This document shows positions 17,624 to 43,373 of a stretch of DNA of 64,000 nt, piece by piece. A program made the translations under genes and the position numbers. The number at the start of each line of letters is the position of its first letter. The first letter of the stretch is position 1. The stretch covers positions 81,978-145,977 of IMG/VR virus record IMGVR_UViG_3300028591_000005; one strand, 5' to 3'. Under the pieces are notes generated by a model. That model ran no database searches. It had not been told where the DNA came from and saw only the letters and a program-made list of their open reading frames with translations. This DNA is from a virus (taxonomy: Duplodnaviria > Caudoviricetes).

Positions 17624-18184
17624 CTAAACCGGTTGACTATTATAATATTTTTTAATTTCATTAATAATATCATCTATTAACCAAAGATGCATATTATTTG
17701 TATCTAATTCGACATGAAATATTATTCCTTTATCCATATCACAAAATTTATTTTTATCATGTCGATGTCCACATAAATTAATTATTTTTGCTTTTAGAGG
17801 TTTATCGTCATCATAATTACTTGTTAAACAAGGATAATGAGATAAATAAAAATGATATTGATTATATTGAAAAAATTGACCTTCAGTTATTTCAACTATA
17901 TTATAACAAGTATTATATAAATTCATACGGACGTCGCTATCATGATTTCCTCTAACTACATGAATATTTCCTTTAAGCTGTTTAATAAGACGAATACCTT
18001 CTTCATTATTGTTAAGCATTAAATCTCCAAGACAATAAACATGGTCATCAGGTTCAACAACAGAATTCCAATTATAGAGAATTGCATTATTCATTTCATA
18101 AACAGAATTAAATCCACGAGGTTCATATATAAATGGTTTATTATGGAATAAATGGAGGTCGCTCGTAATCCATATATCAGACAT
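17624..18184 (-). CDS. calcineurin-like metallophosphoesterase
   Basis: SDLHLFH, LGDL, GNHD, SHYP, GHRH motifs. Confidence 0.9.
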   Translation of the reverse strand: MSDIWITSDLHLFHNKPFIYEPRGFNSVYEMNNAILYNWNSVVEPDDHVYCLGDLMLNNNEEGIRLIKQLKGNIHVVRGNHDSDVRMNLYNTCYNIVEITEGQFFQYNQYHFYLSHYPCLTSNYDDDKPLKAKIINLCGHRHDKNKFCDMDKGIIFHVELDTNNMHLWLIDDIINEIKKYYNSQPV

Positions 18185-18689
18185 TATTATTCTCCTTAAT
18201 TACAATTTCACCATTTGAATATATTACAATAATTTTATCAAAACCCTCATCAAAACTGGGATTTCTAAAATGTTCATACATATTTTCAATTACATCACGA
18301 GGAACGTATGAACGAGTATTTTTTCTTTTTTCATTCTGACGAATACAGGTATCTACTCCATTGCGGAGAACAACAGCAATAACTTCACAATCTTTCAAAC
18401 TATCCCCTAATTTGCGGAGAAGCTTGGTACGAGATCCTGAATTGATATGCGTAGCATCAGCAATGGTGGCTTCCGCATTTTTTAATCCATCTTTTATTTC
18501 ATCAATAAATTTATTAAATACTTCAGTTTCATGCGAGAAGTATTCTTCATCTTCTTTTACTATTGAGAAACGAATATCATCTCTAGATACATATTTCACA
18601 TCGTCGCCGAACATAGTAAGATGATTCTTGCAGAACGTGCTTTTGCCTGTTCCTGGCACTCCACAAATAACGTACAGTTTATTCTTCAT
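18177..18689 (-). CDS. P-loop kinase, polynucleotide kinase-like (AAA_33)
   Basis: GVPGTGKS Walker A, SRDDIR, DATH, RQNEKR lid. Confidence 0.85.
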   Translation of the reverse strand: MKNKLYVICGVPGTGKSTFCKNHLTMFGDDVKYVSRDDIRFSIVKEDEEYFSHETEVFNKFIDEIKDGLKNAEATIADATHINSGSRTKLLRKLGDSLKDCEVIAVVLRNGVDTCIRQNEKRKNTRSYVPRDVIENMYEHFRNPSFDEGFDKIIVIYSNGEIVIKENNNV

Positions 18690-18978
18690 AGATATCAACA
18701 CCTTCTCTCATAAGCTTATCTCTAAGTTGACCATAGGTCATTTTTCTTTGCTGATTTTCGTCAAAATTTCCATATTTAAATTCAATTTGGAAATCTTCTT
18801 TTGTATATTTTGAACCAACTATACATTCAGCATGATTAGTTTCCGCATTACATTTAAGACACCAAAGTTTTTTCAAGTGTCCTGCTCCACGTTCTTTACC
18901 TGTCTGACGAACAACAGGAATACCTTTGCATCCACATTTACAGCAATAAAATTCCTCACCTACAATCAATTTTCCCAT
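18679..18978 (-). CDS. Zn-ribbon hypothetical protein
   Basis: CCKCG and HLKKLWCLKC motifs. Confidence 0.7.
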   Translation of the reverse strand: MGKLIVGEEFYCCKCGCKGIPVVRQTGKERGAGHLKKLWCLKCNAETNHAECIVGSKYTKEDFQIEFKYGNFDENQQRKMTYGQLRDKLMREGVDIYEE

Positions 18979-20342: not shown

Positions 20343-21590
20343 TCATCCATGATACTTGATAAGGAATTCATTAGACACAGCCTTGAAGCTCTGAACTCCG
20401 TCTACAGATCTGAATACAAGACCTTCTCTCATACCACCATCTATAGCAGACTTATCAGTTGCTATCTCAAGAAGCTCTTCAACAGTATCGGGAAGTATGA
20501 AATGCTCATCTACTATTGGTACGCAAGGAACATCATATTGCACCATAAGGTCAGTCATCTCTCTAGGATTCAGTCTCTTTCTTCTACCATCCTTGTATCC
20601 AACAATTACATTGAATACAGCGAGGTCATGCTCCTTAAGAGAATAATCTCTCTTCTGAACACCTTCACCATAAGTCTCGCCCTGAACAGTAACAAAATCA
20701 ATATTTCCTTCGGTATTCTCGAAGTACTCCATAAGCATTGAAAGTACATCTTCCATATGATATTTTTCTGCCATTTCAACATATACATTAGTATCATAAT
20801 AGCACTGCTTGTCAGGTCTATCAAATACAACATTTCTTGAGCAAACGAAGAACTGTCTCTTTCTTCCCCAACCTCTCATAGTGAAAGTAGTTGAAGTTCC
20901 ATCTATCTTTTCAGTTGCAAACCACTCGGATTTGTCCTTGAGGATTTGAGGCATATTCTGGACTCTTTCCTCGTCAGTCTTTACAACCCATGAAGGCCAG
21001 GTTTTAACATCTTTCTTCTTGCCAAACAGAAGAAGGAATATCTTTCTTGCCCACTTATGTTTCTTTATAAATCTACCAAACTTTCTTGCTATCCAGGGAT
21101 GTCTAGTAAATGCAGCATTTATTCTAGCATCAGGATTGGGCTTACCCTTTCTCTTCTGATCTTCAGGCTCATAATAAGTTACACTAAGTTGCTGAGTAAG
21201 GAAAGCAGATTCAGTTCCAGGGCGATATTGATGACCTTCCTTATCATATATGTAATTAAACTCATCAGTATAAGCAACAAACCAACCAAAATCTGCGGCA
21301 GGCATAAGAAGCCCCTGAGACCAGAACTGTCCGTCAGGAGTCTTAAACTTCTGAGTCTTGATATGTCCCTTATATTTCTTACAAAATTCAAATATAGGGT
21401 TATCAAGCGGAACCTGGCTATCTATTTCAAAATATATTCCAGGGTCGCCTGCCTTAAATGCGCCCTTTGGAACCATACAAGTCCATCCACCAACCCTTGC
21501 ACATTCAACTCTATCCTTACCTGCTATAGGCTCTACTGAATCAACAGTAACGACATAAGCAAGTTCTCTTATTCCATCCTTATTAAGCAT
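20343..21590 (-). CDS. ATP-dependent RNA ligase (Rnl2/DRB0094-like)
   Basis: N-terminal OB-like domain, KTDEERVQN, motif I EKIDG, CSRN, QGETYG, FNV, EGLV, FKAVS. Confidence 0.9.
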   Translation of the reverse strand: MLNKDGIRELAYVVTVDSVEPIAGKDRVECARVGGWTCMVPKGAFKAGDPGIYFEIDSQVPLDNPIFEFCKKYKGHIKTQKFKTPDGQFWSQGLLMPAADFGWFVAYTDEFNYIYDKEGHQYRPGTESAFLTQQLSVTYYEPEDQKRKGKPNPDARINAAFTRHPWIARKFGRFIKKHKWARKIFLLLFGKKKDVKTWPSWVVKTDEERVQNMPQILKDKSEWFATEKIDGTSTTFTMRGWGRKRQFFVCSRNVVFDRPDKQCYYDTNVYVEMAEKYHMEDVLSMLMEYFENTEGNIDFVTVQGETYGEGVQKRDYSLKEHDLAVFNVIVGYKDGRRKRLNPREMTDLMVQYDVPCVPIVDEHFILPDTVEELLEIATDKSAIDGGMREGLVFRSVDGVQSFKAVSNEFLIKYHG

Positions 21591-40998: not shown

Positions 40999-41277
40999 AT
41001 ATTGGTTTTTATCCACATATGCCTGGAACCATAACCAAACATATATGAGGTTAAAGACTTTACCAAGCTTTATTCACTCTCATTCGTATATTTTAGCGAC
41101 GTCTTTAATTCAGGTTCTCGTCCATAGCAGTGAGGAGCTATAATACTCAACAATCTCTGCCTTACGCCCTTCTTCGTCATAGGGTGACCTATGGGATTCT
41201 CGTTCTCATAGCAACGCCTGCTCCAAAGAGCAGGAAAACGACTACTGCGGGGATCGAACCCGCGACCTCGGCAGTGA

Positions 41278-42125
41278 ATGCTCGAAACAAGTTACGACCT
41301 TATATTTTAGACCATTCTTCTTCAGAATATTTATTAATTTCTGTTTTTTTACGAGGTAATCCGAATTTATCACACCATTTTCGGATAGCATTATCAGAAA
41401 CTCCATATTTAGTTCCAATTGTTGTAAATGGAACAGTTCTGATAAGATTTTTTAATTCTTCTCTTGTAATAGGCATTTTATCTTCAGGAATAATTCTATT
41501 TTTAGCAGAACATTCTGCACATCTTGTTGATGTTCTAAAAATTTCTTTTCCACAATCTATACAATAAAATTTTTTTGCAAAAATTTTTCTTTGTGGATTC
41601 CTACTACCTGTTGTTTCTAATTGTTGATTACAATTAGGACATACCCATCTTAAATTTTCTAATCTGTCATCATTATTAATACCATTGATATGGTCAAGTA
41701 TAAGAGTCAATTCTTTACCTTGCCATATTGGCTCTTGTCCACAGATAGAACATTTATATTCAGAGCAAGAATTTTTTATATATAATTTTCGTAAAGTATG
41801 TTGACTTGCTGTAGAATCTTGTATAAAAGTATTCTCCGGAGTCCTAATTACTCCTGTTCTAATACTCTTTTGAAAATGAGAAGTATCATAATTACTTAAT
41901 TTTTCTTCTAACATTTTAAGAGTATCTCCAGATGGAGAATTACTATATCCAATTTTTCTAGCAAAATCTTTAAAAGAAACAGAAATTTTTACAATATTTT
42001 CTATTTCTGAAGATGAATAATTTTCAAAATATCCCATAAAGACTCCTTTCTTATAAGATATATGAAAATAAGTTCAACTTCTTGAACTCGACTCGTCCAA
42101 AGTTTTACATTTAAACTATTCGAAC
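41278..42125 (-). mobile_element. tRNA-shaped intron carrying an HNH endonuclease
   Basis: Ends fold as acceptor GTTCGAA/TTCGAGC, D arm GTTT-AAATGTA-AAAC, stem TTGGAC/GTCTAA, T arm ATAAG-GTCGTAA-CTTGT; ORF inside. Confidence 0.75.
41300..42037 (-). CDS. HNH homing endonuclease
   Basis: CSICG..LILDHINGINNDDRLENLRWVCPNCN; Zn ribbon and C-terminal HTH (YGVSDNAIRKW); AAGGAG RBS. Confidence 0.92.
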   Translation of the reverse strand: MGYFENYSSSEIENIVKISVSFKDFARKIGYSNSPSGDTLKMLEEKLSNYDTSHFQKSIRTGVIRTPENTFIQDSTASQHTLRKLYIKNSCSEYKCSICGQEPIWQGKELTLILDHINGINNDDRLENLRWVCPNCNQQLETTGSRNPQRKIFAKKFYCIDCGKEIFRTSTRCAECSAKNRIIPEDKMPITREELKNLIRTVPFTTIGTKYGVSDNAIRKWCDKFGLPRKKTEINKYSEEEWSKI

Positions 42126-42270
42126 CAGTGCCGTATTCTAACCAAACTGAACTAAGTAGCCAAAACAATAGCAATACCGAGTAAGATGTCAAATCTCCTT
42201 TTTATAGTGATTGGATCCACTTGTGTTCTTACTATATCGGCTTTATTCTCTTCTAAATTGCTATTGTAAA

Positions 42271-42342
42271 ATGGAATGACAGGACTCGAACCTATGCATA
42301 GCGATTTTTCCATCGCCGCTCTACCAACTGAGCTACATTCCG
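42271..42342 (-). pseudogene. tRNA-Phe-like with 6-nt anticodon loop
   Basis: Canonical D and T arms; GCGAT-GGAAAA-ATCGC lacks U33. Confidence 0.6.
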
Positions 42343-42700
42343 TAATCGGTTTAACGCTCTGTACGATTCCCCTATTTAACTTCGGGACAGCTCCACATCT
42401 GTTATTTAAACTCTCTAGTGGGGAGAGTATAGTTCATGAACCGGTTGAACTTGGGTCGCACGAGGTGTCAACCAAACCCCGCCGTTTGCAAACTAGTGAT
42501 TATTTTTTTAGTTCATCACCACCGAACACTTCTCACATAGCGAAGTAAATGGATAAGGATTTCATCGCCTTATACAGATATTGGTATGTTCTTTCTCGTA
42601 AAACTCCAACATCAAAACCGACCTGTTTTTTTTAAAATCTTATTGGATAACAGGTAACCTCACCGATACAGTCGTCGCTCACGAGACCTCGTTATACATA

Positions 42701-42770: not shown

Positions 42771-42837
42771 CTAACGAGCGCGGAGCCTCATCTCCGCCTG
42801 TCATATCCTGTCAATTCAGGCATTACTTCGGTTGAAA

Positions 42838-42968
42838 CGGGAATCCGAGGACTCGAACCTCGATACTACGCTTAATGGATAAATGAGTACTGCCCTCAAA
42901 TCCTTGACAGTGTTTTCTTTAAACTATTATCCCACAGGCGTATGTCCTAACCTTTGGACGAGAAACCC
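42838..42968 (-). tRNA. tRNA-Asn(GTT) split by a 59-nt tRNA-shaped insert
   Basis: Removing 42876-42934 gives TACGC-CT-GTT-AA-GCGTA; G73; acceptor has two mismatches. Confidence 0.78.
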
Positions 42969-43373
42969 AAATCACGGGAGCCCATCCCCGCATTCTCACA
43001 CAGAGCATTCTCTGGTCGGGCATATTGAAAGGGAGGTGTGATTTATATACAAAAGAAAGGGAAAACCTTAAAGGATAATGTAGGAACATTTCATATCCCT
43101 TTCTTTATTGTAAATATATTATAACAAAAATTTTTTTAAAAGTCAAATGGTTATTTTTTATTGTACAAAAAACAACCAAAAAACTAAACCCCGATGACGC
43201 TCACAGGTGGTAGCCGCAACTACTATGAATAGAAGAAAATGAAAATAAGATTTTTCTTTTTGTACTTTTCACTTTCTATAAATATTATAACAAAAATTTT
43301 GTTATAAATCAAATGATGATTTTGTATTTTATATAAAAAATACTTTTATTAGAATTTTATCGCTTGCCCAAGA

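Follow-up and report, generated by a model that had tools for sequence, protein, structure and literature searches.

A tRNA-shaped insert carrying an HNH endonuclease gene in a phage tRNA-Asp gene, and a proposed route for its removal

We examined a 64,000-nt stretch of phage DNA (positions 81,978 to 145,977 of IMG/VR record IMGVR_UViG_3300028591_000005; hereafter the window) in which the gene for tRNA-Asp(GTC) is interrupted in its anticodon loop by an 848-nt insert. The ends of this insert fold into the shape of a tRNA, and a gene for an HNH homing endonuclease sits where the anticodon loop would be. We propose that the insert is a mobile tRNA-shaped intron, cut at its 5′ end by RNase P and at its 3′ end by an RNase Z-type enzyme, with the exons rejoined by an RNA ligase, and we lean slightly toward this proposal being correct. 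The source record is a complete phage genome of 145,977 bp with terminal repeats. It holds 23 tRNA genes, and its split genes are its sole tRNA-Asp and sole tRNA-Asn.

Anatomy of the split tRNA-Asp gene

The two exons (Table 1) join to a perfect canonical tRNA-Asp(GTC) with the anticodon loop CTG-TCAC, where the hyphen marks the junction; the spliced product is expected to read CGGCACTG directly followed by TCACTGCCG. ARAGORN called the joined exons tRNA-Asp(gtc) and, when introns were allowed, called the genomic stretch tRNA-Asp with an 848-nt intron. The gene was missed by ARAGORN with default settings and by Rfam at the gathering score.

Within the insert, the first seven bases pair with a segment close to its 3′ end (GTTCGAA/TTCGAGC, 7 bp with one G-U). 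A TA connector leads to the D arm, and a single T precedes the stem that closes the long "anticodon loop," TTGGA(C)/(G)TCTAA, where brackets mark the last pair. A variable region of 3 nt, AAT, separates this stem from the T arm. After TTGGAC come 46 nt with a weak promoter-like stretch, then AAGGAG, and then the open reading frame (ORF), whose final codons (W-S-K-I-stop) provide GTCTAA, AAT, and the 5′ strand of the T hairpin. The non-coding part of the insert thus amounts to 88 + 22 = 110 nt. When the 923-nt precursor was folded in full, its minimum free energy structure contained the outer tRNA arms, the closing stem with its 840-nt range, and the TTGGAC/GTCTAA stem.

The inner element has acceptor, D, and T arms, a closing pair of the G53:C61 type, and C56. 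It departs from a decoding tRNA in its "loop" of ~780 nt, which holds the ORF, and in its D loop (AAATGTA) and T loop (GTCGTAA). ARAGORN called it a tRNA once the ORF region was swapped for an artificial 7-nt loop; among six elements with the loop replaced, three were called at default settings and all six at relaxed settings. The insert by itself received no ARAGORN call with introns allowed, as the long "loop" must be replaced first. As in phage tRNA-like introns, removal of the insert restores a normal tRNA and the insert is itself tRNA-shaped.

An earlier note, made from the letters of this stretch alone, had described tRNA-Asp(GTC) as split after G34 by 848 nt. It had placed an inner cloverleaf in the insert (acceptor stem, TA, D arm, anticodon-equivalent stem, 3-nt variable region, and T arm), with the HNH ORF and its ribosome-binding site in place of the anticodon loop and the stop codon in the T stem, and it had given the insert end as GCAT with about 110 nt outside the ORF. 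Sequence reading and ARAGORN confirmed this description in every detail.

Table 1. Features of the split tRNA-Asp locus and related genes in the window.
Feature	Position	Strand	Remarks
tRNA-Asp(GTC) 5′ exon	42126..42161	-	Positions 1-34, 36 nt; last base is wobble G34
tRNA-Asp(GTC) 3′ exon	41239..41277	-	Positions 35-73; CCA not encoded
Whole tRNA-shaped insert	41278..42125	-	848 nt; begins after G34
Inner acceptor-like stem, 5′ strand GTTCGAA	42119..42125	-	First base is first intron base; proposed RNase P site
Inner D arm GTTT-AAATGTA-AAAC	42102..42116	-	D stem covaries in wider family
Closing stem of ORF-bearing "anticodon loop," 5′ strand TTGGAC	42095..42100	-	Preceded by single T
Ribosome-binding site AAGGAG	42043..42048	-	5 nt ahead of ATG; read from sequence
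HNH homing-endonuclease gene	41300..42037	-	245 aa; phrog_10822 HNH endonuclease, E = 2.4e-39
Closing stem of "anticodon loop," 3′ strand GTCTAA	41307..41312	-	Inside codons W-S-K of HNH ORF
Inner T arm ATAAG-GTCGTAA-CTTGT	41287..41303	-	Stop TAA at 41302-41300 in its 5′ strand
Inner acceptor-like stem, 3′ strand TTCGAGC	41280..41286	-	Pairs with first 7 bases of insert
Tail AT	41278..41279	-	Discriminator-like A + 1 nt; precedes 3′ splice site
Promoter-like site TTGACA-16-(TG)TATTGT	42165..42192	-	Directly upstream of tRNA-Asp 5′ end; consensus match only
ORF-less mini-insert in tRNA-Asn(GTT)	42875..42933	-	59 nt; gene 42837-42969
RNA ligase, N-terminal OB fold + nucleotidyltransferase	20343..21590	-	Candidate exon sealer; PF09414 E = 2.5e-20, PF21189; phrog_968 RNA ligase E = 1e-63
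Calcineurin-type phosphoesterase	17624-18184	-	Half of RNA end-healing pair
Polynucleotide-kinase-like P-loop protein	18177-18701	-	Half of RNA end-healing pair

Related inserts and their nucleases

Homologous inserts with an HNH gene and the same architecture lie in tRNA-Asp (L001, L246) and tRNA-Glu genes (L002, L003, L004). The acceptor-like stems are all different and all paired (GTTCGAA/TTCGAGC, GTTTGAA/TTCAAGC, GTTCAAA/TTTGAGC, GTTGATT/AATCAGC, GGTAGAA/TTTTACC, GTTAATT/AATTAGC). The T stems covary among the homologues (ATAAG/CTTGT, ATGAG/CTCAT, TTAAG/CTTAA, TTGAG/CTCAA) and the D stems in the wider family (GTTT/AAAC, GTAT/ATAC, GTGT/ACAC, GCAT/ATGC), with three to six kinds of standard pair at each acceptor position across the family. 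In 24 of 24 inserts the T stem ends in a G:C pair and the third T-loop base is C, as in real tRNAs. Comparison of related inserts from uncultured phages of 90-180 kb, along the lines of a check that the earlier note had proposed, found the cloverleaf pairings kept through compensatory changes. We also considered whether the paired ends are the terminal inverted repeats of a DNA transposon and rejected this, since the 7-bp ends differ between members yet stay complementary and are accompanied by CCA and by T and D arms.

In the related loci, each of 42 distinct calls of a tRNA with an insert was parsed under a single constraint, a 7-nt anticodon loop after removal. The first base of the insert was the start of a 7-bp stem in 24 of the 42. 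A perfect 7-bp stem from the first insert base together with an abutting T arm (5-bp stem, 7-nt loop) was present in 45% of the real inserts and 0.2% of 2100 shuffles, and exactly NCCA lay between the stem and the 3′ exon in 15 of 42 inserts compared with none of the 2100 shuffles. Removing the inserts leaves a valid outer cloverleaf whose 7-nt loop has T33. Since the site of insertion differs among the tRNAs, from 32/33 to 36/37, it is the inner element that sets the ends and not a ruler on the outer tRNA. Tails of 4 nt were found in 14 of 14 inserts whose outer tRNA encodes CCA; tails of 1-2 nt occur only where CCA is unencoded, as in the tRNA-Asp gene described here. Inserts across the wider family run from the +1 position of the mimic to its CCA end, precisely the extent that excision by tRNA end-processing enzymes would require.

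Inserts of 44-75 nt that lack an ORF take the form of acceptor and T-arm minihelices or small cloverleaves. One of these, a 71-nt insert (L205, 2525-2592, inside a tRNA at 2491-2636), scores 41.2 bits against the Rfam tRNA model unaided and has its own anticodon loop, TATGGAT, which lacks U33. The window holds one in tRNA-Asn(GTT), which reads GGGATAA-TA-GTTT..AAAC...TTGAG-GGCAGTA-CTCAT-TTATCCA-T and has TAGTTTAAA in common with the Asp insert. This tRNA-Asn gene has two mismatches in its outer acceptor stem and was missed by Rfam. When viral contigs were searched for the D-arm pattern, most of what came up was ordinary AT-rich tRNAs or matches by chance, and one locus, L071, was new. Its insert (reverse strand, 1425-2276) lies in tRNA-Gly(TCC), ends in ACCA, and has the same shell and the same C-terminal domain as the Asp insert, but a GIY-YIG nuclease domain replaces HNH; in-frame TAG codons indicate a TAG-recoded phage. 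The earlier note had inferred a tRNA mimic, and the comparison supports it: the homologues keep the cloverleaf and wider-family inserts run from mimic +1 to CCA end. This support is comparative rather than biochemical.

The nuclease encoded in the Asp insert matches Pfam HNH (20.3 bits) and HNH_3 (20.6 bits) just below the cut-offs, and its C-terminus forms a zinc-ribbon and helix-turn-helix-like DNA-binding domain. It has 30 close relatives in uncultured phage contigs of 90-190 kb, and the C-terminal domain has more than 324 relatives in viral contigs. Many nuclease relatives are free-standing, adjoining tRNA-Gln or other tRNA genes or lying between tRNA genes. The best full-length matches from cultured phages belong to Enterococcus Schiekvirus phages, where the homologues are either free-standing on the strand opposite the tRNAs or outside the tRNA cluster; among these cultured relatives of the nuclease we found no example of the intron. 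The nearest relatives in assemblies labeled as bacterial (L240-L262) lie on 120-165-kb contigs of rumen and gut metagenome-assembled genomes (MAGs) assigned to Bacilli, Erysipelotrichaceae, Lachnospiraceae, Mollicutes, and Endomicrobiaceae. These contigs are probably phage genomes binned with bacteria, and the labels hint weakly at hosts among the Bacillota of the gut or rumen. Related phages carry intact tRNA-Asp genes with the loop CTGTCAC, which gives a presence/absence pattern. We propose that the HNH gene would mobilize the element by cutting intron-less tRNA genes.

The free-standing relatives also fit a different account, in which the gene is dead: a selfish HNH cassette entered the anticodon loop of tRNA-Asp together with what was left of a Gln-like tRNA gene from a previous invasion, there is no splicing, and the host's tRNA-Asp is used. 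The shell would then serve the cassette, for example in release or stability of the nuclease mRNA. The 5′ half of the inner element does resemble the 5′ halves of real AT-rich phage tRNA-Gln(TTG) genes (L114), insertions lacking a shell exist in otherwise intact tRNA halves, two complete relatives have no ligase (see below), and the outer T loop of L001 is non-canonical (TCCGACT). We nevertheless judge this account unlikely. The inner stems covary although the inner element cannot decode, and so are under selection as RNA. A nuclease cassette cannot account for the ORF-less versions, which are common and have exactly the same ends. The ends coincide with +1 and CCA in 15 cases, compared with none of the 2100 shuffles. 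All outer exons still join to valid cloverleaves with 7-nt loops, and the genes that are split are the phage's only tRNA-Asp and tRNA-Asn genes.

A proposed route of removal and its alternatives

Known classes of intron do not account for the insert. Between 41100 and 42300, none of 4227 Rfam families, including group I, group II, and small ribozymes, gave a match at E ≤ 10, and 12 related loci gave only tRNA matches at the gathering score, with no group I, group II, or ribozyme family. A group I intron was rejected since no P3-P9 core matched in Rfam, the 5′ exon ends in G34 rather than U, and the insert ends in GCAT rather than G (related inserts end in A, T, or CCA). With this negative control, the claim in the earlier note that the insert is not group I is supported. 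A group II intron was rejected on the lack of an Rfam match, an ORF that encodes HNH without reverse transcriptase, and a non-coding part of only 110 nt. An archaeal-type bulge-helix-bulge, in which two 3-nt bulges 4 bp apart each hold a splice site, was tried by hand at both sites and failed on geometry: the two splice sites oppose each other over an internal loop of 3 x 6 nt that lies between the anticodon and closing stems. EndA (PF01974) was absent from the complete phage genome, a search that covered the phage and not its host, and the phage genome likewise holds no RtcB, RNase Z-like, or CCA-adding gene.

A ribozyme core may share its sequence with an ORF, and Rfam is limited to described families, so we weighed a self-splicing or self-cleaving RNA outside those families, such as two small ribozymes or a much reduced group I-like core that overlaps the ORF. 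We consider this very improbable. Besides the Rfam result and the missing 5′ U and terminal G, the ORF-less relatives of 44-59 nt are too small for a splicing ribozyme, and the cloverleaf accounts fully for the conserved structure.

Our favored reading, excision of the insert as though it were a tRNA, would proceed as follows. The phage would transcribe tRNA-Asp with the 848-nt insert in its anticodon loop, and the ends of the insert would pair to give an acceptor stem stacked on the T arm, plus a D arm. Because these ends fold like a tRNA, we propose that the tRNA-maturation enzymes of the cell would treat the insert as one. RNase P and RNase Z accept acceptor/T-arm minihelices, and they leave 3′-OH and 5′-P ends, which are substrates of Rnl-type ligases. 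RNase P would cut at the first base of the insert, between 42126 and 42125, leaving G34 of the 5′ exon with a 3′-OH; an RNase Z-type 3′ endonuclease would cut just beyond the discriminator of the mimic, in the region of 41278 and 41277, giving the 3′ exon a 5′-phosphate. The two tRNA-Asp halves would stay paired through the tRNA body while an ATP-dependent RNA ligase, probably that of the phage, sealed the nick in the anticodon loop. Splicing itself, the enzymes that act in it, and homing by the nuclease are what we infer from these anatomical and comparative observations.

The RNA repair set of the phage spans 17624-21590 on the minus strand (Table 1). The gene named by the earlier note as the ligase for the exons is a genuine RNA ligase by its Pfam and phrog matches. 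The same ligase family scores above the cut-off in 10 of 17 relatives with an intron, and an Rnl1-type ligase is present in two more; RtcB was found in none of their records. This co-occurrence of ligase and intron is suggestive but not decisive, because the counts are raw and carry no background rate.

Several observations weigh against excision as a tRNA. Two essentially complete intron-bearing relatives (G007, G012) have no recognizable RNA ligase of three families. In the Asp mimic itself, the D loop has no GG and the T loop is non-canonical. The 3′ cut is the weakest step in the clade of the Asp insert, because two nucleotides follow the stem and there is no CCA; the tails in this clade are a discriminator plus 1 nt (AT, AA, TA), except in L002, where the tail is a single T. 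If the cut fell immediately behind the discriminator, the loop would retain a surplus base, and either the 3′ enzyme cuts one base further or something else sets the 3′ site in this clade. A one-base shift of the 5′ cut, to compensate for the surplus base on the 3′ side, was rejected, as it would change GTC to TTC on a clearly Asp-type body. Elsewhere, some tails are degenerate forms of CCA (GCAA, ACTA), and L205 can be read with a longer tail. Four nuclease relatives (L174, L182, L184, L220) lie in split tRNAs where a closing stem of 7-9 bp is all that forms, the T arm being absent, and where AAGCAT is conserved after the stop codon; two more (L009, L204) lie in split tRNAs with almost no flanking RNA. 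A tRNA shape cannot explain these six inserts, which therefore keep alive both the dead-gene account and a different nuclease acting at a helix junction. Intact exons could also reflect recent insertion.

The second of these alternatives keeps a real protein-spliced intron and assigns its cuts to other nucleases: another endonuclease encoded by the phage, or RNase III or RNase E of the host working where the anticodon stem meets the closing stem. The tRNA shape would then have a different use, for example to lure anticodon nucleases away, to stabilize the RNA after its release, or to let it be tagged with CCA. Tails of 1, 2, and 4 nt fit RNase Z imperfectly, the closing-stem-only inserts and a helix-only 45-nt insert in tRNA-Leu(TAA) suggest a helix-junction route, and the kinase/phosphoesterase healing pair of the phage would be needed only for 5′-OH or cyclic-phosphate ends. 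Still, over varied insertion positions the 5′ site falls on +1 of a 7-bp acceptor stem and the 3′ site on the CCA end, the pattern that marks tRNA end processing. The phage has no gene resembling EndA or RNase Z and no bulge-helix-bulge can be drawn at the sites, and we regard this alternative as quite unlikely. An RNase III-type staggered cut with a 2-nt 3′ overhang was separately rejected as a general rule: it fits the Asp insert, L001, L004, and the tRNA-Leu insert, but not L002 (1 nt) or the NCCA tails (4 nt).

Relation to known systems and other unusual tRNA genes

Mobile group I introns sit in the anticodon loops of bacterial and phage tRNAs, for example in cyanobacterial tRNA-Leu(UAA) and in tRNA-fMet, where they occur with a homing endonuclease. 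The Asp insert resembles these introns in its anticodon-loop site, its homing-endonuclease ORF in a peripheral loop, and a presence/absence pattern typical of homing. It differs in lacking a ribozyme core, a U.G pair at the 5′ site, and a G as its last base, in line with the negative Rfam result. Without a ribozyme core, its excision must be carried out by proteins or RNase P and not by self-splicing. In mitochondrial tRNA punctuation and at the 3′ end of MALAT1/mascRNA, RNase P and then RNase Z cut at the two ends of a tRNA-shaped element embedded in a longer RNA, as proposed here; the flanks in those cases are not rejoined, whereas the flanks of the Asp insert are tRNA halves that need ligation.

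For the ligation, a parallel is found in phage T4, whose Pnkp and Rnl1 repair tRNA-Lys cut in its anticodon loop by PrrC. In both cases a phage ligase would seal a break in the anticodon loop of a tRNA whose halves are paired, and our phage has a ligase together with a kinase/phosphoesterase pair. The T4 break is, however, damage inflicted by the host and not intron removal, and the ligase here is of the PF09414 and OB-fold type rather than Rnl1. Archaeal introns cut by EndA at a bulge-helix-bulge likewise involve protein-dependent tRNA splicing at varied positions, and some carry endonuclease genes, but the present locus has neither that geometry nor a phage EndA homologue, and its promoter and ribosome-binding signals are bacterial. 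T4 SegB is a free-standing homing endonuclease in a phage tRNA cluster. The family described here is similarly tied to tRNA clusters and has many free-standing members; unlike in SegB-type nucleases, the gene in the window lies inside a tRNA gene, in a structured shell.

The introns in bacterial and phage tRNAs are generally regarded as group I RNAs that splice themselves, and protein-dependent tRNA splicing is treated as an archaeal and eukaryal trait. An insert that has no room for a ribozyme, and whose ends, like those of dozens of relatives, coincide with the ends of an embedded tRNA look-alike, therefore makes for a concrete and testable hypothesis. In its general form, bacteria and phages would have a third, ribozyme-free route of intron removal, in which tRNA-shaped mobile introns are cut by RNase P and a tRNA 3′ endonuclease and sealed by a ligase. 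Splicing would be one role of the widespread phage RNA ligases, and the endonuclease-bearing form would be the mobile parent of the small ORF-less inserts. We hold this generalization in even balance between acceptance and rejection.

Introns of a similar kind have been noted before. "Enigmatic" introns were reported in the tRNAs of Lak megaphages, one of which "itself may encode a tRNA" (Devoto et al., 2019; PMC6784885), and a 2026 survey remarked that such introns "could encode another tRNA" (PMC13037316). A full-text literature search gave no description of the mechanism of such introns, only these two observational mentions. The Lak introns share with the Asp insert their position in the anticodon region of phage tRNA genes, the prediction of at least one as a tRNA, and presence or absence among related phages. 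Both papers are confined to observation and contain no endonuclease-bearing form, no rule that the ends run from +1 to CCA, no covariation, and no pathway; moreover, Lak phages have 540-kb recoded genomes, whereas the phage studied here has a 146-kb genome and the standard code. The endonuclease-bearing mobile form thus adds to a barely described kind of phage tRNA intron.

If our proposal is true, such inserts would be a new class of mobile intron that accounts for the "enigmatic" introns of Lak and other large phages, and phage RNA ligases would gain a role beyond repairing the damage done by anticodon nucleases. Standard bacterial tRNA finders would also miss many phage tRNA genes, as happened with the tRNA-Asp gene here. 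The form that bears HNH, or GIY-YIG in a relative, shows how such inserts could spread.

Other tRNA genes in the window are unusual in different ways. The tRNA-Leu(TAA) gene at 38567-38696 (minus strand) has a 45-nt insert that is not tRNA-shaped and prolongs the anticodon stem into a long helix. Cuts that yield the loop CTTAAAA would leave 2-nt 3′ overhangs, as with RNase III, which we offer as an idea only. A second gene, at 38156-38272 (minus strand), holds an insert of 45-46 nt with a GTATCA/TGATAC hairpin followed by ACAGCAA; ARAGORN called it Lys(CTT), although its identity is unclear. A Phe-like tRNA at 42270-42343 (minus strand) was given a 4-base anticodon (gaaa) by ARAGORN, and RNAfold gave it a 6-bp stem with a 6-nt loop, GGAAAA. 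Among the other loci collected, two tRNA-Leu(TAA) genes in Melioribacteraceae and Bacteroidetes MAGs (L269, L277) have inserts of 191-195 nt after CT; these resemble the classical group I introns of tRNA-Leu and have no relation to the tRNA-shaped inserts.

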